From assembly GCA_040263275.1 (NCBI GenBank), contig JBDQKM010000002.1:1-48934 (forward strand): a stretch of DNA of 48,934 nt, written 5' to 3'. This DNA comes from Acidimicrobiales bacterium (GTDB lineage: Bacteria; Actinomycetota; Acidimicrobiia; Acidimicrobiales; Aldehydirespiratoraceae). Positions within the stretch are counted from its first letter, which is position 1, and the number at the start of each line of letters is the position of its first letter. Positions 26,452-48,633 of the stretch are shown in pieces. The notes beneath the pieces are model-generated. The model worked only from the letters and a program-made list of their open reading frames with translations, was not told the DNA's origin and searched no databases. Made by a program: the position numbers and the translations under genes.

Positions 26452-27914
26452 GCGTGCCCGAACACTTCGACGTCCTGATCGTCGGCGCCGGTATCTCGGG
26501 CGTCGGCGGCGCCTACCACCTCCAGGAGCAGCGCCCGGGCTCGTCGTTCGTCGTGCTCGAGAGCAAGGAGACCTTCGGCGGTACCTGGGAGACCCACAAG
26601 TATCCGGGCATCAGGTCCGACAGCGACCTCTACACCTTCGGCTACCGGTTCAAGCCCTGGACGGGCACGCCGATCGCCACCGCCGATGAGATCATCCGCT
26701 ACATGGGCGAGGTCATCGACGAAAACGATCTCGACCGCCACATCCGCTACGGCCACCTGATCACCTCGGCCCGGTGGAACAGCGACGAGCGGCGGTGGAC
26801 CATCACGGCGACCGGCCCCGACGGCGACTCGGTCGTGTTCACCGCCGGGTTCCTGTGGATGTGTCAGGGCTACTACCGCCACTCCCACGGCTACACCCCC
26901 GAGTGGCCGGGGATGCAACGCTTCGCCGGGCAGATCGTGCACCCGCAGACCTGGCCCGACGATCTCGACTACGCCGGGAAGCGGGTCGTCTGCATCGGCT
27001 CGGGCGCCACCGCAGCCACGCTCGTGCCGGCGATGGCCGACGAGGTCGAGCACATCACGATGCTCCAGCGGTCGCCGACCTTCTTCATCACCGGGCGCAA
27101 CGCCAACGAACTGGCCGACACCCTCCGCGAGCTCGACATCCCGGAGGAGTGGACCCACGAGATCGTGCGGCGCAAGATCCTGAAGGACCAGGGCGAGTTG
27201 ACCAGCCTCGCGCTCGATCACCCCGACATGGTGCGCGGCGAGCTGTTGAAGGCGATCAGCGACATCCTCGGCGACGACTACGACGTCGACACCCACTTCA
27301 ACCCGAGCTACCGGCCCTGGCAGCAACGCATCGCGTTCGTGCCCGACGCCGACCTCTTCCAGGGCATCAAGTCGGGCCAGGCATCGGTGGTCACCGACGA
27401 GATCGAGTCGTTCACCGAGACCGGGATCGCCCTCACCTCCGGTGAGCACCTCGAGGCCGACATCATCATCACGGCCACCGGCTTCGACCTCAACGTCCTG
27501 GGCGACATCGACTTCGCCATCGACGGCGAGCCGCTCGACTTCTCCTCGACCGTCACCTACCTGGGGGCGATGTTCACCGGCGTCCCCAACCTGGCCTGGG
27601 TATTCGGCTACTTCCGCGCCAGCTGGACCCTGCGAGCGGACCTGTTGGCCGACTTCGTGTGCCGCCTGCTCGACGAGATGGACGAGCGCGGCGCCACCCG
27701 AGTCGTGCCCGAGCTCGGAGCCGACGAGGCCGACATGGAGCTGCGCCCGTGGGTCGAAGCCGACAACTTCAACCCCGGCTACCTCACCCGCAACATGCAC
27801 CTCATGCCCAAACAAGGCGACCACCAACCGTGGATCCACACCCAGGACTACTGGGTCGACAAGGACCTGCTGCCGGCCGTCGACCTCGGTGACGGTGCCC
27901 TCCGCTTCGACTGA
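26448..27914 (+). CDS. FAD-containing monooxygenase (EthA-like Baeyer-Villiger type)
   Basis: ATG 26448 overlaps the upstream stop (ATGA). IVGAGISGV, FGGTWETHKYPGIRSDSD, FAGQIVHPQTWP and CIGSGATAAT. Confidence 0.85.
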
Positions 27915-31725: not shown

Positions 31726-32247
31726 TCACTGTCCTCCCGTGAGGAGACGCAGGGCCTCCTCGACCGCGCCGTCGGCCCACGCCTCGACGACCGAGGTGTC
31801 GGTGCCACCCAGGGGATGTTCGACCTGCACGATGCGCGCGTCGGGCTGCCCCAGTGAGGCCGCGACCTGGTCGGTCAGGGTCCTGAACTTGGTGGTGGTC
31901 ACCACCACCGTGGGGATCCCGGCGGCTTCGAGTTGTACGGAGTCGTGGACACTCCACGACGTGCAGCTGCCTCAATCGGCCGAGCCGGTCAGGACCAGCT
32001 CGACCTCCTCGCGTAGTCGTGACATCACGTCGTCGGGCGCCGCCAGGGCTGCGTTCTTGGTCTCGACCCGCGTGACGGTCGCCCCGGTCCGCTCGGCCAG
32101 TCGCTCCGCCATCCGGCCGAGCAGCACGCCGGCGTTCGGCTTGGTGTTGTCGAGGATGCCGATTCGTCGGCCGGCCAGGACGGAAGGGCTCGGGGCCAGA
32201 TGGACCGGCTCGGGGCCGATCTCACCCGCCGGGGTGTAGATCCTCAT
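31726..32247 (-). CDS. Candidate selenoprotein with a U-G-S-C motif (in-frame TGA at 31972..31974 read as Sec); 173 aa
   Basis: ORFs 31972..32247 and 31726..31908 are in the same frame, separated by one TGA and 21 sense codons. Read-through gives ..VELVLTGSAD-U-GSCTSWSVHDSVQLEAAGIPTVVVTTT... A SECIS-like hairpin lies 11 nt downstream. AGGAG SD precedes ATG 32247, and the gene is tightly coupled to its neighbours. Confidence 0.7.
31942..31960 (-). promoter_or_regulatory. SECIS-like hairpin downstream of the UGSC TGA
   Basis: The mRNA sense is GUCGUGG-AGUGU-CCACGAC, a perfect 7-bp stem starting 11 nt after the UGA. The apical-loop G-U falls at nt 23-24 counted from the U of UGA. Confidence 0.6.
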
Positions 32248-40809: not shown

Positions 40810-41982
40810 TCAACCCCGGTGGCGTCGGTGGTGGCAGGAAGCACATCGGAGCTCGAGCTCGCTGGTGAGGGTGTGGCCGGTCTGTTCGTGGGCCGGGTTG
40901 TGGTCGTATTCGAGGAGTTCGTGACTTCCGCAGTCGCGACACGCCCGATCGCGTTCCTTGACGAACCGCTTCTGACGGATGCTGGGGTGGCGGCGGCGAT
41001 TGGAGACGTCGACGGGGTTCGCCTCGGCGTCGTGGATCATCGCCCGGAGGAACGCGGTGGGGGCGATGCGCTCGACCACGGAGTCGGTGATCGGGCTTCC
41101 GTCGTCGAGGGTTGCGCCATCGCCACGCACGTGGAGCACCACCTCGGTCGCGACCTCGCCCGTACCGTGAGCGAGCACCTCCTCGATGGCATCGGCGTAC
41201 TGCTGGTTGGTCGTCGGCCAGGTCCCATCCGGCTCTCGGCGGGCAGCGGAGCGCATCACGAGCCGGGTGAGTGTGGCGATCAGGATCCCGGCCAGCAACG
41301 GCGGCAGGCGCAACGTGAAGACCACCATGCCGTCGGCCTCGGTGCGCCATTTCACGCCGCGAAGGGCGTGCTGATGCGCCTCCAGATCGCCAGGGTCGGC
41401 CTGGCCCGTGAACCACACGGCCAGCGCCCGTCCCAGCTCGGACGCCGGCACGTCGACCGCGATCGCCAGCAGGTCGGCCTCGTTCTCGACCGTCGCGAAA
41501 CGGGTCAGGGTCCGCACCTTCGAGTACGAGACCACGCCGCCCTCGAAGGTCCCGGCGATCGCCGGCAGATCACGAAGCTTGTGACCGATGCGGATCCACT
41601 CGCGGGCCGTGCACGTCTCGACGTCGGCGGTTGCCGCCAGCCAATGCGCTGCGGTGGGCGACTCCAGCACCCATTCGGCCGAGTCTGCGAACTCGGCCGC
41701 CAGCGTTACCAGCCGGAACTGCGCATCGGCCCACCGCCGGGTCACGTCGACGAGCGCCGACGCCAGCGGACGCGTGCCCGCACCGTCCGAAACCGCACCA
41801 CTCCCTGTAACACTCTTCCCTGCAACACTCTGGACACCCATCGCCGACCTCCATGCAAATGACTCACGTGGGGGACCGGCCGGAGGGTCTTGCGGGATCA
41901 CCTGAGCGGAGGACCTGGTCGAGCTTCGCTCGACCGCAGCGTACCCAGGGGGTGTGACACCCAAGAGCCGTGACCGGAACAC
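40810..41982 (-). CDS. DUF222 (13E12-repeat type) protein with a C-terminal HNH endonuclease motif
   Basis: C-terminus RDRACRDCGSHELLEYDHNPAHEQTGHTLTSELELRCASCHHRRH (HNH with Cys4). The upstream region is DUF222-like (AQFRLVTLAAEFADSAEW). The start may instead be the ATG at 41841. Confidence 0.75.
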   Translation of the reverse strand: MFRSRLLGVTPPGYAAVERSSTRSSAQVIPQDPPAGPPRESFAWRSAMGVQSVAGKSVTGSGAVSDGAGTRPLASALVDVTRRWADAQFRLVTLAAEFADSAEWVLESPTAAHWLAATADVETCTAREWIRIGHKLRDLPAIAGTFEGGVVSYSKVRTLTRFATVENEADLLAIAVDVPASELGRALAVWFTGQADPGDLEAHQHALRGVKWRTEADGMVVFTLRLPPLLAGILIATLTRLVMRSAARREPDGTWPTTNQQYADAIEEVLAHGTGEVATEVVLHVRGDGATLDDGSPITDSVVERIAPTAFLRAMIHDAEANPVDVSNRRRHPSIRQKRFVKERDRACRDCGSHELLEYDHNPAHEQTGHTLTSELELRCASCHHRRHRG

Positions 41983-42062
41983 CGAGCGCCACCACCCCGG
42001 ACACGCGTCCGCGGGATCGAATCCGGAGCCTGCGCCGACCTCTGGTGGCTACTCTCGGGGCC

Positions 42063-42650
42063 ATGACCGACCTGCCCTCCACTGACGACATCCCCGAGGT
42101 TTCGTGGACCCGCATGGAGGAGGGCACCGCTGCCGACTACGCGGTGCTGACGACCGCGGCCGTGGCGCACACCGGCGGCGCACTCGTCGACAACCTCCTC
42201 ACGATGCTCGACCTGCTGAAGGGACCGAACCTCGGATACCAGATCAACCGCTACGAACACTCCCTGCAGTCCGCCACCCGCGCCTACCGGGCCGACGAGT
42301 CGGACGACCTCGTCGTCGGTGCGCTCCTCCACGATGTCGGCGATGTGTTCGCGCCCGAGAACCACAGCGATGCGGCCGGCGCGCTTCTCGCTCCCTACGT
42401 CGACGAGCGGACCGAGTGGATCGTTCGCCACCACGGCATCTTCCAGGGCTACTACTACTTCCATCACCTCGGTGGCGACCGCAACGCCCGCGAGCACTAC
42501 CGGGACTCGCCGCACTACGACGCGTGCGTTGCCTTCTGCGCCGAGTACGACCAGAACTGCTTCGACCCGAACTACGACACCTTGCCCATCGGCGAGTTCG
42601 AGCCCCTGCTCCGCGAGGTCATGAGCCGTCCATCACGCTTCGACACCTGA
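42063..42650 (+). CDS. HD-domain metal-dependent protein (possibly a PhnZ/MIOX-like oxygenase-type HD protein)
   Basis: Real part of ORF 41970..42650, from ATG 42063. YEHSLQSA..GALLHDVGD..ENH..IVRHHGIFQGYYYFHH supplies several His/Asp ligand candidates. The subfamily assignment is a guess. Confidence 0.6.
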   Translation: MTDLPSTDDIPEVSWTRMEEGTAADYAVLTTAAVAHTGGALVDNLLTMLDLLKGPNLGYQINRYEHSLQSATRAYRADESDDLVVGALLHDVGDVFAPENHSDAAGALLAPYVDERTEWIVRHHGIFQGYYYFHHLGGDRNAREHYRDSPHYDACVAFCAEYDQNCFDPNYDTLPIGEFEPLLREVMSRPSRFDT

Positions 42651-42662
42651 CAGACTCGGCGG

Positions 42663-42980
42663 ATGCTCACGCTCTACCACAACCAGAATTGAAGCAAGGC
42701 TCGCGGGGCGGTCGCCCTGCTCGACGAACGCGGGGTCGACTACACGATCCACGACTACATCGCCGATCCACTCGATGCCGCGACGCTGACCGAGCTCGTG
42801 GCCATGGTCGGCGGTGACCCGGCGGCGATGGTGAGGGCATCCCTCGACGACACCAGCGCCGCGGCGGTGGTGGCCCACCTGGTCGAGAACCCGGCCGACA
42901 TGCAACGACCCATCGCCGTGCTCGACGGCCGCGCCGTCTTCGGCCGCCCGTCCGAGCTGGTGCTCGACCTCCTCGACTGA
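42663..42980 (+). CDS. ArsC-family (Grx-type arsenate reductase fold) protein with an in-frame TGA at the catalytic Cys position; candidate selenoprotein, 105 aa
   Basis: ATG 42663, 12 nt after the HD-gene stop. MLTLYHNQN-U-SKARGAVALLDERGVDYTIHDYIADPL... aligns with the ArsC N-terminus IYHNPAC(12)GTSRN, and the TGA at 42690..42692 sits at Cys12. The C-terminus NPADMQRPIAVLDGRAVFGRPSELVLDLL matches ArsC ..INRPIV....RLCRPSEVVLDIL. A SECIS-like hairpin follows the TGA. Confidence 0.7.
42703..42720 (+). promoter_or_regulatory. SECIS-like hairpin downstream of the ArsC-family TGA
   Basis: GCGGGGC-GGUC-GCCCUGC forms a 7-bp stem (one G.U pair) starting 10 nt after the UGA. From memory, GGUC is the same apical tetraloop sequence as the E. 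coli fdhF SECIS. The loop G-U falls at nt 22-23 from the U of UGA. Confidence 0.55.
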
Positions 42981-42985
42981 GCGCC

Positions 42986-44179
42986 CTACTGGATCTGATC
43001 GAGCGCGGACTCGAGTCGGGCCACCGCAGCATCGACGTCCAGCAGCTTGTCGAGCCCGAAGAGCCCCAAGCGGAAGGTCGAGAAGTCGTCGCCCTCGCCG
43101 CACATGAGCGGCACGCCGCCGGCGATCTGTAGGCCGGCTGCGGCGAACTTGCTGCCGTTCTTCACGTCGGGATCGTCGGTGTAGGACACGACGACACCCG
43201 GGGCCCCGAAACCCTCGGCGGCGACGCTGGCGATGCCGCGAGCACCCAGCAGGGCACGCACCCGGTCACCCAGCTCCTGTTGGGCCTGCTGCACCACGTC
43301 GAAACCGATCGCCTCCGTCTCGGCCATCACCGACCGGAAGGACGTGATCGCGTCGGTCGGCATGGTCGCGTGGTAGGCGTGACCCCCCGACTCGTAGGCG
43401 GCCATGATCTGGCGCCATTTGCCCAGGTCACAGGCAAAGCTGGTGCTCTGCGTCTCTGCCAATCGGACCCCGGCCGCCTCGTTCAGCATCACGAGCGCGC
43501 CGAACGGAGAGCCCGACCAGCCCTTCTGCGGGGCGCTGACCAGGACATCGATGCCGACGTCGGCCATGTCGACCCAGATCGTGCCCGAGGCGATGCAGTC
43601 GAGCACGAACAAGCCGTCGACCGCGTGGGTCGCCGCCGCGACCGTGCGCAGATAGTCGTCGGGAAGGATCATGCCGGCCGACGTCTCGACGTGGGGAGCG
43701 AACACCACTGCGGGACGCTCGGATTCGATCGTGGCCACCACCTCGTCGAGCGGGGCGGGCGCGAACGGCTCCGTGGGCCCCTCCGTCGCACGGCGGGCGG
43801 CGAGCACGGTGTGCGACGACGGGATCGAGCCCATCTCGAAGATCTGTGTCCACCGGTAGGAGAAGAAGCCGTTGCGCAGCACGAGACAGTGCTGGTCCGT
43901 GGCGAACTGGCGCGCCACCGCTTCCATGCCGAAGGTGCCGCTGCCCGGCACGATCGTCGCCGAGTTCGCCGAGTAGACGTCGCGGAGGGTGCGACTCACG
44001 TCGGTCATCACCGACTGGAAGCTCTGGCTCATGTGGTTGAGTGCACGGTCGGTGTAGACGACCGAGTACTCGAGGAGACCGTCGGGGTCGACATCGGGAC
44101 GCAGGCCAGGCATGGATCGCTCGCTTCGGGAGGTGGGAACGGAGCGCCCACGATCCCAGACGCGGGCGACGACTGCCAT
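42986..44179 (-). CDS. Class V (AGXT/PhnW-like) PLP-dependent aminotransferase
   Basis: ATIVPGSGTFGMEAV, VFAPHVETSAGMI, VLDCIASG, and SAPQKGW (the PLP-lysine motif). The start may instead be the ATG at 44113 (MPGLRPD..). Confidence 0.75.
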   Translation of the reverse strand: MAVVARVWDRGRSVPTSRSERSMPGLRPDVDPDGLLEYSVVYTDRALNHMSQSFQSVMTDVSRTLRDVYSANSATIVPGSGTFGMEAVARQFATDQHCLVLRNGFFSYRWTQIFEMGSIPSSHTVLAARRATEGPTEPFAPAPLDEVVATIESERPAVVFAPHVETSAGMILPDDYLRTVAAATHAVDGLFVLDCIASGTIWVDMADVGIDVLVSAPQKGWSGSPFGALVMLNEAAGVRLAETQSTSFACDLGKWRQIMAAYESGGHAYHATMPTDAITSFRSVMAETEAIGFDVVQQAQQELGDRVRALLGARGIASVAAEGFGAPGVVVSYTDDPDVKNGSKFAAAGLQIAGGVPLMCGEGDDFSTFRLGLFGLDKLLDVDAAVARLESALDQIQ

Positions 44180-44289
44180 CCTCAGGCCATCCGCGGCCCG
44201 ACGCGGGAAGATCCCTGTCCACCTGGGTCACGATGCGGTACGGTCTGCCAGCAATTGTCCGTACATTTATCCAAGGCTCTGAAGGACAC

Positions 44290-45798
44290 GTGACCCGGCT
44301 CGGCTTCCTCCTCGACAGCGATTCCTGCATCGGGTGCCACGCCTGCACGGTGGCGTGCAAGAGCGAGCACGACGTGCCGCTGGGCGTGAATCGCACCTGG
44401 GTGAAATACATCGAGACCGGCTCGTTCCCGAACGTCAGCCGCCACTTCTCGGTGATGCGCTGCAACCAGTGCGACGACGCCCCGTGCATGTCGATCTGCC
44501 CCACCAACGCGCTCTACCGGGCCGACAACGGGGTCGTCGACTTCAACGACGACAACTGCATCGGGTGCAAGGGCTGCATGAACGCCTGCCCCTACGACGC
44601 GCTCTACATCAACCCGGCCACGAACACGGCCCACAAGTGCAACTTCTGCAACCACCGCATCGAGCAGAACCTCGAGCCGTCGTGCGTGGTCGTGTGCCCG
44701 ACCCACGCCATCAAGGTGGCAGACCTCGACGACCCGCTGAACCTCGCCACGAGCATCATCGCCCGCGACGACGTCGCGGTCCGCGCCCCCGAACAGGGGA
44801 CCAACCCGAAGGTGTACTACCGGGGCGCCGACCAGGCGTCGCTGAACCCGCTCCGAACCGCCATCGCGAACGACGGGATGATCTGGGCCGACACCACACC
44901 GGCCCATCCGACCGTGCCACCCGACAGCCATGGCGTGGTCGCCCGTACCACCTACACCACCTCACACCAGATGACGTGGAAGGAGAAGGTGTCGGGCTAT
45001 CTCGTCACCAAGGCGATCGCGGCGGGCGTGATGCTGGTCGCCGCGCTGTTGGTGCTCCTCGGCCACAGCGACGAGCAGGCTGCGGTCGGCGTGGTCCCCC
45101 CGATGGTGGCCGGCGTCTTCCTCGCCCTCACCGGCGTGCTGCTCGTCGCCGACCTGAAGCAGCCCGGCCGCTTCCACTACCTGATCACCCGCGGGAGTTG
45201 GGAGTCCTGGCTCGTGAAGGGGGCCTACATCCTCGCCGGCTTCGCTGCGCTCATGGCGGCGTGGTGGGTCGCCGGCCTGGCCGACATGCACCGGACCATC
45301 GAGGTCCTCGCCATCCCGACCGCGCTGTTCGCCGCAGGCACCGCCGGCTACACCGCCTTCCTGTTCGCCCAGTGCGAGGGCCGAGACCTCTGGCAGACCC
45401 CGCTCCTGCTTCCGACGCTGTTGGCCCAGTCGGTCGCCGCCGGTGGCGCCACGTACGCGATCATCGATCTCTTCATGGAGGTGCCGTCGAGCGACGCGAC
45501 CCAGTGGGCGTTCCTCGGCGGGACCGTGGTCACCCTCGCGCTGATCTGGATCGAGGCCTCGTCGAAGGGCACACCCCACGTCGAGGCCGCGCTCCATCAG
45601 ATGATCCGCGGCGCCTACGCCAGCCGCTTCCGGTTCGGCGTCGCCGGGCTCCTCGTTGCCGCTGCGCTGGTGGTCGCCGCCCTGGCGACCGACGCCGGGC
45701 CCGGCCTCGGAGCCCTCGCCGGCGTGATCGCGGTCGCCGCCCTCTGGGCGTATGAAGACGCCTTCGTCCGCGCCGGCCAATCCGTGCCCCTCTCCTAG
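44290..45798 (+). CDS. Fused 4Fe-4S dicluster (PsrB/DmsB-like) and NrfD/PsrC-like 8-TM membrane anchor subunit
   Basis: GTG 44290 with GAAGGA SD upstream (alternative ATG at 44233). Four Cys clusters: CIGCHACTVAC, CNQCDDAPC, CIGCKGCMNAC and CNFC..C. The same frame then runs into eight hydrophobic helices with no stop codon. Confidence 0.8.
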   Translation: MTRLGFLLDSDSCIGCHACTVACKSEHDVPLGVNRTWVKYIETGSFPNVSRHFSVMRCNQCDDAPCMSICPTNALYRADNGVVDFNDDNCIGCKGCMNACPYDALYINPATNTAHKCNFCNHRIEQNLEPSCVVVCPTHAIKVADLDDPLNLATSIIARDDVAVRAPEQGTNPKVYYRGADQASLNPLRTAIANDGMIWADTTPAHPTVPPDSHGVVARTTYTTSHQMTWKEKVSGYLVTKAIAAGVMLVAALLVLLGHSDEQAAVGVVPPMVAGVFLALTGVLLVADLKQPGRFHYLITRGSWESWLVKGAYILAGFAALMAAWWVAGLADMHRTIEVLAIPTALFAAGTAGYTAFLFAQCEGRDLWQTPLLLPTLLAQSVAAGGATYAIIDLFMEVPSSDATQWAFLGGTVVTLALIWIEASSKGTPHVEAALHQMIRGAYASRFRFGVAGLLVAAALVVAALATDAGPGLGALAGVIAVAALWAYEDAFVRAGQSVPLS

Positions 45799-45807
45799 GA
45801 CCCGCCG

Positions 45808-48633
45808 ATGACCGACCTGCAGCAGTACCCGCCCCACGAGGACTGGCACGACGTCACCTCGCTCAACGCCAAGGCCTGGCCCGACAAGGTCGAGGAACAC
45901 CACTCGCTGGTGCCGACGACCTGCTTCAACTGTGAGGCGGCGTGTGGGCTGCTGGCCCACGTCAACCACGAGACCGGCGAGATCGACAAGATCGAGGGCA
46001 ACCCGCTCCATCCCGCGTCGCGGGGCCGCAACTGCGCCAAGGGCCCGGCCACGCTCAACCAGGTCACGGACACCGAACGAATCCTCCATCCGATGCGTCG
46101 GGTCGGGGAGCGTGGCTCGGGGCAGTGGGAGCGGGTCAGCTGGGAGGAAGCCCTCACCGACATCGGTGCTCGAATCGGGACGGCGATGGACGAGGGCCGC
46201 CGCGACGGCGTGATGTACCACGTCGGTCGACCGGGGGAGGACGGCTACGCCGACCGGGTCCTCAAGTCGTGGGGCGTCGACGGCCACAACAGCCACACCA
46301 ACATCTGCTCCTCCAATGCCCGCATCGGCTATCAGAGCTGGATGGGCCACGACCGCCCGTCGTCCGACTTCGCCAACGCCGAGGTGATCTTCCTGATCTC
46401 CTCGCACCTGGAGGCGGGCCACTACTTCAACCCCCACGCCCAGCGCATCATCGAGGCCCAGGGCAAGGGCGCGACCGTGATCTGTGTGGACCCGCGACTG
46501 TCCAACACCGGTTCGAAGGCCGACCACTGGCTGCCGGCCTGGCCCGGAACGGAGCCCTTCCTCCTGCTCACGATCGCCCGGCTGCTCATCGAGCGCGGGA
46601 CCTGGCAGAAGGACTTCGTGCGTCGGTGGGTCAACTGGGAGACCTACCTCTCCGAGACCCGCCCCGACCTGCCGCTCGAGTTCGACTCACTCGAGACCGC
46701 GTTGCTCGACGCCTACGCGGAGTACACCCCCGAAGCGGCCGAAGAGATCTGCGGCGTCTCCGGCGACCAGCTCCGAGAGATCGCCGAGATCATCGGGGCC
46801 CACCCGACCAAGTTCGCGTCGCACAACTGGCGAGCGGCCGGCGCCGGCAACCTCGGCGGTTGGCAGACCGCCCGCTGCCTGTTCTTCCTCAACGTGTTGA
46901 CCGGCTCCGTCGCGACCGTCGGCGGCACCAGTGGCAACGGCTGGAACAAGTTCAAGCCCGCCCAGCCGAAGGGCGCACCGGCGCTGCACGAGTGGAACGA
47001 GCTCTCCTGGCCGAAGGAGTTCCCGCTCTCGTACCACGAGATGTCGATCCTCCTGCCGCACTTCCTGAACGAGGGTCGCGGCACGCTCGACGTGTACTTC
47101 AGCCGGGTCTACAACCCGATCTGGACAAACCCCGACGGCTTCTCGTGGATGGAGGCGCTGACCGACGAGTCGAAGGTGAAGTGCCACGTGGCCCTCACCC
47201 CGACCTGGTCGGAGACCGCCTGGTTCGCCGACTATGTGCTCCCGATGGGAGTCGGCACGGAGCGTCACGACGTCGCGTCGTTCGAGACCCACAACGGCCG
47301 CTGGATCGGATTCCGCCAGCCGGTCATGCGCCGCTACGCCGAGATCCGCGGCGAGGAACTCGGACCCGACTCGCGCACGCACGAATTCAACCGCGGCGAG
47401 GTCTGGGAGGAGAACGAGTTCTGGATCGACCTCTCGTGGAAGATCGACCCCGATGGGTCTCGCGGCATCCGCCAGTGGTTCGAGTCCGACGAGCGGCCGG
47501 GGACGCCGATCACGGTCGACGAGTACTACGGCACGATGTTCTCGCAGTCCGTCCCCGGGCTCGCCGAGGCGGCGGAGGAAGCGGGCAAGACCCCGCTCGA
47601 GTACATGCGCGACGTCGGCTCGTTCGCCGTGCCGGGCGACATGGTCACGCCCTACGAGCGCATCGTGGGCGCCGACGCGGTCGCCGACTGCGAGAAGGGC
47701 ACCGATGGTGTCTTCCGCAAGCCGGGCACGATCGGTGCCTGGGACGGGACCAAGGATGGTCTGGCCGACATCGCCCTCGCCGACCTCGGCGAGGGCTCGC
47801 CCGCAGTCGAGGTCGACGGCGAGATCAAGGAGGGTTTCCCGACGCCCTCGAAGAAGCTCGAGCTCTTCTCCACCACGCTCAAGGACTGGGGATGGCCGGA
47901 GTATGCAGCGCCCACGTGGATCAAGAGCCACGTCCACCACCAGGACCTCGACATCGCGGGCAGTGAGCGCATCCTTCTGCCCACGTTCCGGATCCCGACA
48001 CTGATCCACACCCGTTCGGCCAACTCGAAGTGGCTCAACGAGATCAGCCATCGGCACCCGTTGTGGATCCACCCGTCCGACGCGGAGGCGCTCGACATCG
48101 AGGAGAACGGGCTCGTGCGCATCACCACCCGGATCGGCCACTTCGTCATCCAGGCCTGGCGAACCGAGGGCGTTCGCCCCGGCGTCGTCGCGGCATCGCA
48201 CCACATGGGGCGCTGGCGCATCGAGGAGGACAAGGCACGATCCTGGGGCGCCGGGAAGGCCACCATCGACAAGACCGCCGACGGGAAATGGAAGCTGACC
48301 CGCAACGACGGCATCCGCAAGTTCGACTCGGACGACCCCGACACCAACCGCATCTGGTGGAACGACACCGGTGTGCACCAGAACCTCACCTTCTCGGTGC
48401 AGCCCGACCCCATCTCCGGCATGCAGTGCTGGCACCAGAAGGTGACCGTCGGCCCAGCCGAGGCCGGCGACCAGTACGGCGATGTCGTCGTCGACACGGC
48501 CAAGTCCCGCGAGGCCTACCTCGACTGGATGGCCAACACCCGGCCCGCACCGGGGCCTGGGGGTCTGCGGCGCCCTCTCTGGTACGCCCGTCCGCTCAAG
48601 CCCGCCGCGCCGATGTACCACCTCGACGACTGA
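45808..48633 (+). CDS. Molybdopterin (bis-MGD) oxidoreductase catalytic subunit, Psr/Ttr/Soe-like, without a TAT signal
   Basis: FS0 motif CFNCEAACGL..(27)..CAKG. Candidate Mo ligand region GHNSHTNICSSNARIG. VCVDPR is the MGD-binding region. An in-frame TAG 12 nt upstream of the ATG excludes an N-terminal extension, and there is no RR motif. Confidence 0.85.
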   Translation: MTDLQQYPPHEDWHDVTSLNAKAWPDKVEEHHSLVPTTCFNCEAACGLLAHVNHETGEIDKIEGNPLHPASRGRNCAKGPATLNQVTDTERILHPMRRVGERGSGQWERVSWEEALTDIGARIGTAMDEGRRDGVMYHVGRPGEDGYADRVLKSWGVDGHNSHTNICSSNARIGYQSWMGHDRPSSDFANAEVIFLISSHLEAGHYFNPHAQRIIEAQGKGATVICVDPRLSNTGSKADHWLPAWPGTEPFLLLTIARLLIERGTWQKDFVRRWVNWETYLSETRPDLPLEFDSLETALLDAYAEYTPEAAEEICGVSGDQLREIAEIIGAHPTKFASHNWRAAGAGNLGGWQTARCLFFLNVLTGSVATVGGTSGNGWNKFKPAQPKGAPALHEWNELSWPKEFPLSYHEMSILLPHFLNEGRGTLDVYFSRVYNPIWTNPDGFSWMEALTDESKVKCHVALTPTWSETAWFADYVLPMGVGTERHDVASFETHNGRWIGFRQPVMRRYAEIRGEELGPDSRTHEFNRGEVWEENEFWIDLSWKIDPDGSRGIRQWFESDERPGTPITVDEYYGTMFSQSVPGLAEAAEEAGKTPLEYMRDVGSFAVPGDMVTPYERIVGADAVADCEKGTDGVFRKPGTIGAWDGTKDGLADIALADLGEGSPAVEVDGEIKEGFPTPSKKLELFSTTLKDWGWPEYAAPTWIKSHVHHQDLDIAGSERILLPTFRIPTLIHTRSANSKWLNEISHRHPLWIHPSDAEALDIEENGLVRITTRIGHFVIQAWRTEGVRPGVVAASHHMGRWRIEEDKARSWGAGKATIDKTADGKWKLTRNDGIRKFDSDDPDTNRIWWNDTGVHQNLTFSVQPDPISGMQCWHQKVTVGPAEAGDQYGDVVVDTAKSREAYLDWMANTRPAPGPGGLRRPLWYARPLKPAAPMYHLDD

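Follow-up and report, generated by a model that had tools for sequence, protein, structure and literature searches.

A 48,934-nucleotide (nt) stretch of Acidimicrobiales DNA (GenBank assembly GCA_040263275.1, contig JBDQKM010000002.1, positions 1 to 48,934; referred to here as the window) contains, between the genes for an HD-domain protein and a class-V aminotransferase, an interval that appears almost devoid of coding sequence. The only entry in the open reading frame (ORF) list that lies in the frame considered here is 60 amino acids (aa) long, at 42798..42980. Translation of the forward strand from an ATG farther upstream, at 42663, gives MLTLYHNQN, an in-frame TGA and then SKARGAVALLDERGVDYTIHDY...GRPSELVLDLLD up to a second TGA, and both this frame and the lone short ORF are as the initial annotation of the DNA had described them. 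The question raised by the locus is whether it holds a gene in which TGA is translated. The evidence supports a gene of the ArsC family in which selenocysteine (Sec) replaces cysteine and which carries a hairpin resembling the Sec insertion sequence (SECIS) of Escherichia coli fdhF, rather than a non-coding gap or a pseudogene. With a probability of roughly 0.85, we take 42663-42980 to be an intact gene whose product, 105 residues long, has a thioredoxin fold and belongs to the ArsC/Spx superfamily, the catalytic Cys being replaced by Sec through recoding directed by a bacterial-type SECIS (bSECIS).

An ArsC-like protein with TGA at the nucleophile position

With a Cys placeholder at the TGA, the complete product matches Pfam ArsC (PF03960) with 31.7 bits over profile positions 1-77 of 79, the gathering threshold being 24 bits. 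Without the nine N-terminal residues and the Sec, the score is 23.6 bits and the C-terminal half alone aligns. The segment upstream of the TGA, whose fit to ArsC models had been proposed as a check, is thus needed to pass the cut-off and takes the match to the first position of the profile.

A profile of eight orthologues matches PDB entries 3RDW (E = 2.6e-14), 3F0I (2.4e-12) and the R773 ArsC structures 1JZW and 1I9D (8e-8). In the alignment with R773 ArsC the TGA falls on Cys12, the position assigned to it from the start, and it also aligns with the Cys of 3RDW and 3F0I. R82 and R95, the arginines of the RPI and GRPSE motifs already thought to be retained, fall on Arg94 and Arg107, and R58 falls on Arg60 as well. 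The read-through product has no Cys anywhere. Assignment to the Spx/MgsR redox regulators was rejected, there being no CxxC (the site reads U-S-K-A, with zero Cys in the protein) and TIGR01617 scoring 34.8 bits against a cut-off of 75.

Conservation on both sides of the TGA

Among 5.8 billion proteins searched, 23 close relatives at 74-98% identity were found. All are modelled in NCBI, JGI, ENA or Logan as proteins of 58-87 aa that start 3′ of residue 10, at start codons varying by lineage; several bear the name 'ArsC/Spx/MgsR family protein [Acidimicrobiales bacterium]', and 'arsenate reductase-like' is also used. In the DNA of the relatives, taken from the loci behind the short gene calls and from genome and metagenome scans, the upstream region always reads ATG, eight conserved codons (ML[TK]LY[YH]N[AQE]N), TGA and then SKARGAVALLDERGVDY.

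Thirteen distinct gene sequences of this clade, 68-98% identical at the amino acid level, have the TGA at the same codon (alignment A3). Identity of the window is 99% with L018, a contig from a JGI metagenome, and 90-92% with L001, a metagenome-assembled genome (MAG) of Acidimicrobiia. Assemblies carrying orthologues include GCA_041394245.1 (contig JAWKIR010000002.1), GCA_033344915.1 (JAWPML010000001.1), GCA_029246685.1 (JAQWMR010000013.1) and JAUIML01. A fourteenth sequence, L047, is 53% identical and keeps the TGA (MADMTLYHNPN-TGA-GKARGAVALL) together with a full-length ArsC loop; it is located at 1948-2268 of a Logan ERR11809028 contig and has no HD neighbour. No other stop or frameshift occurs in any of the 14 TGA-bearing sequences, so that the scattered lesions by which decay was to be recognised are missing from relatives that all retain the TGA. 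The Cys-containing counterparts that had been suggested for comparison exist at a distance: homologues at 41% identity or less, represented by nine metagenomic sequences, have TGC or TGT in the TGA column, and a scan of 241 million metagenome records, in which one of two search patterns required Cys, gave no orthologue with Cys at more than 42% identity.

When all sequence pairs of 13 orthologues are summed, codons 1-9 have a ratio of non-synonymous to synonymous differences (pN/pS) of 0.29, codons 11-45 one of 0.27 and codons 46-105 one of 0.28. The best-conserved stretch of the protein falls within codons 11-45. The in-frame ATG, GTG or TTG starts used by gene callers lie at codon 19, 25, 41, 45, 46, 48 or 49, depending on the lineage; among the 13 orthologues there is no conserved internal start between the TGA and codon 48, and the window has none before codon 46. 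The conserved segment is therefore made only by translation through the TGA, and the public models of 58-87 aa are truncations resulting from taking the Sec-UGA as a stop, a systematic annotation artefact. In one further record, P0025 (121 aa, on a 685-nt ENA contig), the last ~30 ArsC-like residues follow a ChaC-like N-terminus (PF04752), probably through an artefact of gene calling or assembly.

Elsewhere TGA serves as an ordinary stop. It terminates 13 of the 18 called genes of L018, the HD gene 40 nt 5′ of the Sec-TGA and, in 12 of 13 lineages, the ArsC-like gene as well; recoding must therefore be context-specific.

A candidate SECIS hairpin downstream of the TGA

Ten nucleotides downstream of the UGA begins the hairpin GCGGGGC-GGUC-GCCCUGC. 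Counting the U of UGA as 1, its GGUC loop occupies +21 to +24 and the G-U within it +22/+23, in agreement with the initial annotation. The hairpin satisfies the published bSECIS constraints (PMC13188914, Fig. 2A), with a GGUC loop, a stem of 7 base pairs (bp), 17-nt spacing and -12.8 kcal/mol. This model is permissive, 5.9% of the TGAs of the window complying with it and 1.4% fitting a stricter, fdhF-like geometry (68% GC).

Across the 13 clade sequences all 91 sequence-by-pair cells are standard pairs. Nine sequences have G-C at pair 45/54, three (L013, L015 and L028) have A-U and one (L024) has G.U; at pair 44/55, L014 has G.U. In a neighbour-joining tree computed with the hairpin masked, the A-U carriers are scattered among G-C carriers and the G.U carrier stands beside an A-U carrier, which suggests, on a weakly resolved 300-nt tree, that pair 45/54 switched more than once. 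Constraint is also seen at synonymous sites. Four-fold-degenerate codons whose amino acid never changes number 28; their third position is invariant in three of five inside the hairpin and in 0 of 23 elsewhere (Fisher p = 0.003), the two variable sites inside the hairpin being those of the covarying pair.

The hairpin of L047 is nucleotide-identical to that of the window despite 53% protein identity. Because L047 combines the TGA and the same hairpin with a full loop, the Sec codon and the SECIS predate the clade with the loop deletion. Following the Cys codon of the nine Cys homologues, whose loci are 58-74% GC, a compliant hairpin was found in none. Its conservation, covariation and synonymous-site constraint across relatives are what set the hairpin apart from chance. 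The locus combines a UGA conserved at the nucleophile position and coding constraint on both sides of it with selection on the hairpin at the RNA level.

A second helix (alignment columns 59-63/73-77, UCGAC/GUCGA) was rejected, as was an alternative minimum-free-energy fold: column 60 is C, T, G or A against an invariant partner, which breaks the pair in L013 and L028.

A second Sec-type gene in the window

A codon-bias coding scan of the 1022 TGAs of the window flags five: the ArsC-like codon, that of a gene of the UGSC family, two ordinary stops with the following gene in the same frame, and an antisense artefact. Read through its TGA, the UGSC-family gene (Table 1) matches NF041046, 'UGSC family (seleno)protein', with 142.3 bits (cut-off 125) and Pfam PF24696 with 165.1 bits. 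The motif at the TGA reads D-U-G-S-C-T, a literal U-G-S-C, and the TGA lies inside a 74-nt block that is identical in L012, the locus being otherwise 79% identical. Its hairpin, with 8 bp and G23-U24 in the loop, satisfies the bSECIS criteria. That such a predicted selenoprotein gene lies in the same window argues for decoding of UGA as Sec by this genome. Within the class Acidimicrobiia, Sec machinery is reported to be universal in a different order, Actinomarinales (bioRxiv 10.64898/2026.04.03.716425). An early survey counted Actinobacteria among three phyla rich in selenoproteins (PMC1794560).

Public records break the UGSC gene into two ORFs, of 58 and 92 aa in L012, and gene calling does the same in the window. 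Two further TGAs followed by hairpins, at 1421 on the + strand (9-bp stem, GGTC loop) and at 27786 on the - strand (11-bp stem, GTC loop), were rejected as Sec codons, neither having coding bias on both sides.

Table 1. Coordinates of the ArsC-like gene, its predicted functional elements and other features of the window.
Feature	Position	Strand	Remarks
ArsC-like selenoprotein coding sequence (predicted)	42663-42980	+	105 codons; Sec at codon 10; own terminator TGA 42978-42980
Start codon ATG	42663-42665	+	unchanged in all 13 clade sequences; 5′ DNA diverges
Sec-TGA, codon 10	42690-42692	+	unchanged in 14 distinct sequences; on R773 ArsC Cys12
bSECIS-type hairpin	42703-42720	+	7-bp stem 42703-42709/42714-42720; GGUC tetraloop 42710-42713
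Arg58 codon (= ArsC Arg60)	42834-42836	+	unchanged in alignment A2; aligns to 1JZW
Arg82 codon, MQRPI (= ArsC Arg94)	42906-42908	+	unchanged in clade; profile alignment
Arg95 codon, GRPSE (= ArsC Arg107)	42945-42947	+	unchanged in clade; profile alignment
HD-domain gene	42063-42650	+	Pfam HD; gene call from 99%-identical L018; stop TGA 42648-42650
UGSC-family selenoprotein gene (predicted)	31726-32247	-	Sec-TGA 31974-31972; hairpin 31960-31942

Proposed recoding and catalysis

Translation would initiate at ATG 42663, and the GGUC hairpin 11 nt 3′ of the UGA would recruit SelB and Sec-tRNA(Sec), whose involvement we infer, to the UGA at 42690. Sec would be inserted at codon 10 and translation would run on to the TGA at 42978. 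Located at the start of helix 1 and ringed by Arg58, Arg82 and Arg95, the Sec10 selenolate would attack a bound oxyanion, arsenate or similar. Owing to the lack of any other Cys in the protein, an external thiol and redoxin would be needed, and the selenium adduct would be resolved by a low-molecular-weight thiol with a glutaredoxin- or mycoredoxin-type partner, as in the monothiol R773 ArsC. Judging from these sequence features, the protein is likely to be a monothiol-type oxyanion reductase.

Weighing the interpretation

Several results weigh against this interpretation, in its decoding or in its function. ARAGORN found no tRNA-Sec in the window and 11 loci, a tiny and uninformative share of each genome. 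Searches by tblastn with the E. coli proteins found no SelA, SelB or SelD in the window or in ~250 kb of related loci, about 20 kb per genome, again an uninformative share, and in a protein-database search with SelA the top 120 matches listed were all enterobacterial. The stability of the hairpin is not above that of dinucleotide shuffles (z -0.4 to -0.9), a test made uninformative by the 68% GC content of the DNA. Rfam gives no match at the gathering threshold in the whole window or at E <= 10 in 42600-42800, which we count as uninformative because Rfam covers bacterial SECIS poorly. The covariation consists of one pair and one wobble, most stem pairs being constant.

As regards function, the top NCBIfam model, TIGR00014 (arsenate reductase, glutaredoxin), scores 68.9 bits. 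Its equivalog cut-off is 106.05 bits, and the protein is therefore classed as ArsC-like, not as an arsenate reductase equivalog. Relative to R773 ArsC, the loop that follows Arg60 is shorter by about 10 residues. In the U-S-K-A motif, Ser15 (+3) is replaced by Ala in the clade and by Gly in L019; the same site in L047 reads U-G-K-A. No ars genes (arsR, arsB/ACR3) occur within ~10 kb on each side in L004, L012, L013, L015, L018 and L019, according to precomputed Pfam lists, gene context not being strictly defining. Actinobacteria commonly contain mycothiol and not glutathione, so that the reductant is uncertain. The sub-threshold TIGR00014 score, Ala or Gly for Ser15, the loop deletion, the lack of ars genes and the uncertain thiol together weaken the label 'arsenate reductase'. 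Of the original description as a glutaredoxin-coupled ArsC, the fold and the active-site residues hold, whereas the TIGR00014 score, the missing loop residues and the Ser15 replacement tell against the rest.

A TGC-to-TGA nonsense mutation in an ordinary ArsC-like gene, the region now decaying, would need a single base change, and such a pseudogene would fit both the short fragments of the public records and the rank of TGA as the commonest local stop. The same TGA is nevertheless common to 14 distinct sequences down to 53% identity, all free of other lesions; the start codon is kept, the two sides of the TGA are under equal purifying selection, and the 241 million metagenome records yielded no Cys orthologue above 42% identity. 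A single recent contaminant is not the source either, since the sequences are 68-98% identical and come from independent assemblies, and we regard a pseudogene as next to inconceivable. Gene callers in effect model two units, a nine-codon leader peptide ending at the TGA and a separate fragment of 58-87 aa, between which the hairpin would have a regulatory or coupling role, and hairpins 3′ of short upstream ORFs can indeed regulate translation. This arrangement is highly improbable given that internal starts vary by lineage, none being conserved before codon 48, that codons 11-45 have a pN/pS of 0.27, and that a fragment lacking β1 and the nucleophile would have no ArsC active site and scores below the Pfam cut-off.

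Whether the hairpin is a functional RNA at all can be asked, since the peptide it encodes, ARGAVAL, is made of invariant residues in GC-rich codons, its stability does not exceed that of shuffles, and 5.9% of TGAs comply by chance. A mere by-product of the peptide would not, however, freeze synonymous third positions in the hairpin alone (3/5 vs 0/23) or preserve pairing at its two varying sites through G.U to A-U, apparently more than once, and the nine Cys homologues lack the hairpin though they encode similar helices in equally GC-rich DNA; we consider this origin very unlikely. The UGA could also be read by a near-cognate tRNA (Trp, Cys or Arg), stimulated by the hairpin, in a genome without Sec machinery. 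In favour of this, no such machinery was found in the loci covered, and downstream structures can stimulate stop-codon read-through. The UGA, however, is placed on a redox nucleophile that functions with Cys or Sec only, so that inefficient read-through with Trp or Arg at this site would leave the enzyme inactive; the hairpin has features of the SelB type, with G-U at +22/23 in a small apical loop resembling that of fdhF; and a gene of the curated UGSC family has the same arrangement in the same window. Sec is moreover documented in Acidimicrobiia and Actinobacteria (bioRxiv 10.64898/2026.04.03.716425; PMC1794560). Read-through of this kind is accordingly a very unlikely account, and insertion of Sec remains the preferred one.

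Genomic neighbourhood

Immediately upstream of the ArsC-like gene is the HD gene, ending 12 nt before its start; co-transcription is possible. A spacing of 12-20 nt (L004, L012, L018 and L029) is found in most lineages, the most divergent clade member included, and adjacency is absent in L013, L015 and L047. Functional coupling of the two proteins was not upheld, as the adjacency is missing in these three and may be plain synteny. On the downstream side, the class-V aminotransferase gene (42986-44179, -) is convergent with the ArsC-like gene in every clade locus with enough downstream flank.

Similarities of the neighbours to characterised enzymes all lie far below curated cut-offs. The HD protein reaches 27-30 bits with TmpB/PhnZ oxygenases (29 bits for its L029 counterpart) and the aminotransferase 79 bits with PhnW-like models. 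A TauD-family neighbour present in some loci (L029 2826-3707, -) reaches 176 bits with TmpA and 168 bits with gamma-butyrobetaine dioxygenase; this gene is absent from the window. Together these neighbours resemble an aminophosphonate-catabolism set. It is conceivable, though improbable, that the U-S-K-A clade is Sec-only, has moved past arsenic resistance and works with the HD, TauD/TmpA-like and aminotransferase genes on an oxyanion, for example by reducing arsenate or another oxyanion freed by oxidative cleavage of organo-arsonate or phosphonate analogues. Such coupling with the neighbours is a low-probability speculation; if true, it would mean that marine organo-element catabolism includes a previously unrecognised step that depends on a selenoenzyme.

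Upstream of the HD gene, a 390-aa DUF222/HNH-like ORF (40810-41982, -) lies in a ~1.1-kb stretch (40987-42086) shared by the window and L018. The 98-99% identical contigs L019 and L020 have ~0.36 kb in its place, and the stretch looks like a strain-variable insertion. Beyond the aminotransferase gene are a fused 4Fe-4S/NrfD-type membrane protein (44284-45798, +) and a 941-aa molybdopterin oxidoreductase (45808-48633, +), whose top, sub-threshold matches are TtrB and PhsA and which are syntenic in all clade loci. The catalytic subunit of the oxidoreductase starts MTDLQQYPPHEDW, with no obvious twin-arginine leader.

Implications

Nothing in these results overturns current understanding, and their main value is the correction of an annotation and a clean natural example of SECIS covariation. 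With ArsC-like models cut short and the UGSC gene split, the selenoproteomes of marine Acidimicrobiia are under-counted. Compact, well conserved and provided with natural compensatory variants, the SECIS of the clade would lend itself to the study of how SelB recognises such elements in Actinobacteria. An ArsC-like subfamily that is apparently Sec-only, with altered motif and loop, could also help to explain the long-uncharacterised ArsC-like selenoproteins. The initial annotation had seen in the locus a genomic example that would let function be studied; the lineage is still uncultured, represented by metagenomes and MAGs, and so does not provide the tractable case hoped for.

Comparison with known systems

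The UGSC family (NF041046/PF24696) is unrelated in sequence to ArsC and bears only on Sec decoding within the genome. For the SECIS, the reference is E. coli fdhF (NC_000913.3), with its Sec UGA at codon 140 and an apical loop formed by G22 G23 U24 C25, so that the GGUC loop given for it in the initial annotation is correct. Both elements are coding-region stem-loops directly 3′ of the UGA with an identical GGUC apical tetraloop. They differ in the location of G-U, at +23/24 in fdhF and one nucleotide closer, at +22/23, in the ArsC-like gene, and in the stem, which in the latter is shorter, a perfect, GC-rich 7 bp that lacks both a bulged U and a long lower part.

With R773 ArsC (1I9D, 1JZW) the predicted protein shares the fold, the nucleophile at the Cys12 site, Arg60, Arg94 and Arg107, and a single redox residue. 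Unlike R773 ArsC, the clade has Sec for Cys and Ala for Ser15, scores below the TIGR00014 cut-off, has no ars operon context, and is 105 as opposed to 141 aa long, residues ~64-73 and the C-terminal tail being missing. The closest solved structures are the YfgD-like putative arsenate reductases 3RDW and 3F0I (HNPxCSKSR), which have YHNxxC/U-SK-xR and the C-terminal GRPxExVLExL in common with the clade; they differ from it in containing Cys and a longer loop.

Selenoproteins of the ArsC type have been known since 2005-2008, which lowers the novelty originally claimed for the locus, as they already figure in surveys, genomes, reviews and databases. 'ArsC 1' selenoproteins were listed from Global Ocean Sampling (GOS) metagenomes (pfam03960, motif UxxS, 77 sequences; PMC2398784), 'ArsC-like' ones were described in the genomes of Desulfotalea and Desulfuromonas in 2006 (PMC1794560), reviews of 2022 and 2026 include them under COG1393/TIGR00014 (PMC9312934, PMC13188914), and they are present in BSepDB (PMC13326102). 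Besides the metagenomic surveys named in the initial annotation, sequenced genomes have thus been a source of such proteins since 2006. The window gene is a further case, possibly one already listed.

The clade and the ArsC 1 family have in common the superfamily, Sec in place of the N-terminal catalytic Cys and a marine setting; in both, selenoprotein status was predicted from Cys/Sec alignment and a bSECIS, and function is uncharacterised. The clade differs in its U-S-K-A motif (U-G-K-A in L047, U-S-K-G in L019), in which the 'S' of UxxS is missing, in its ~10-residue loop deletion, in its Acidimicrobiia host and in being apparently Sec-only.

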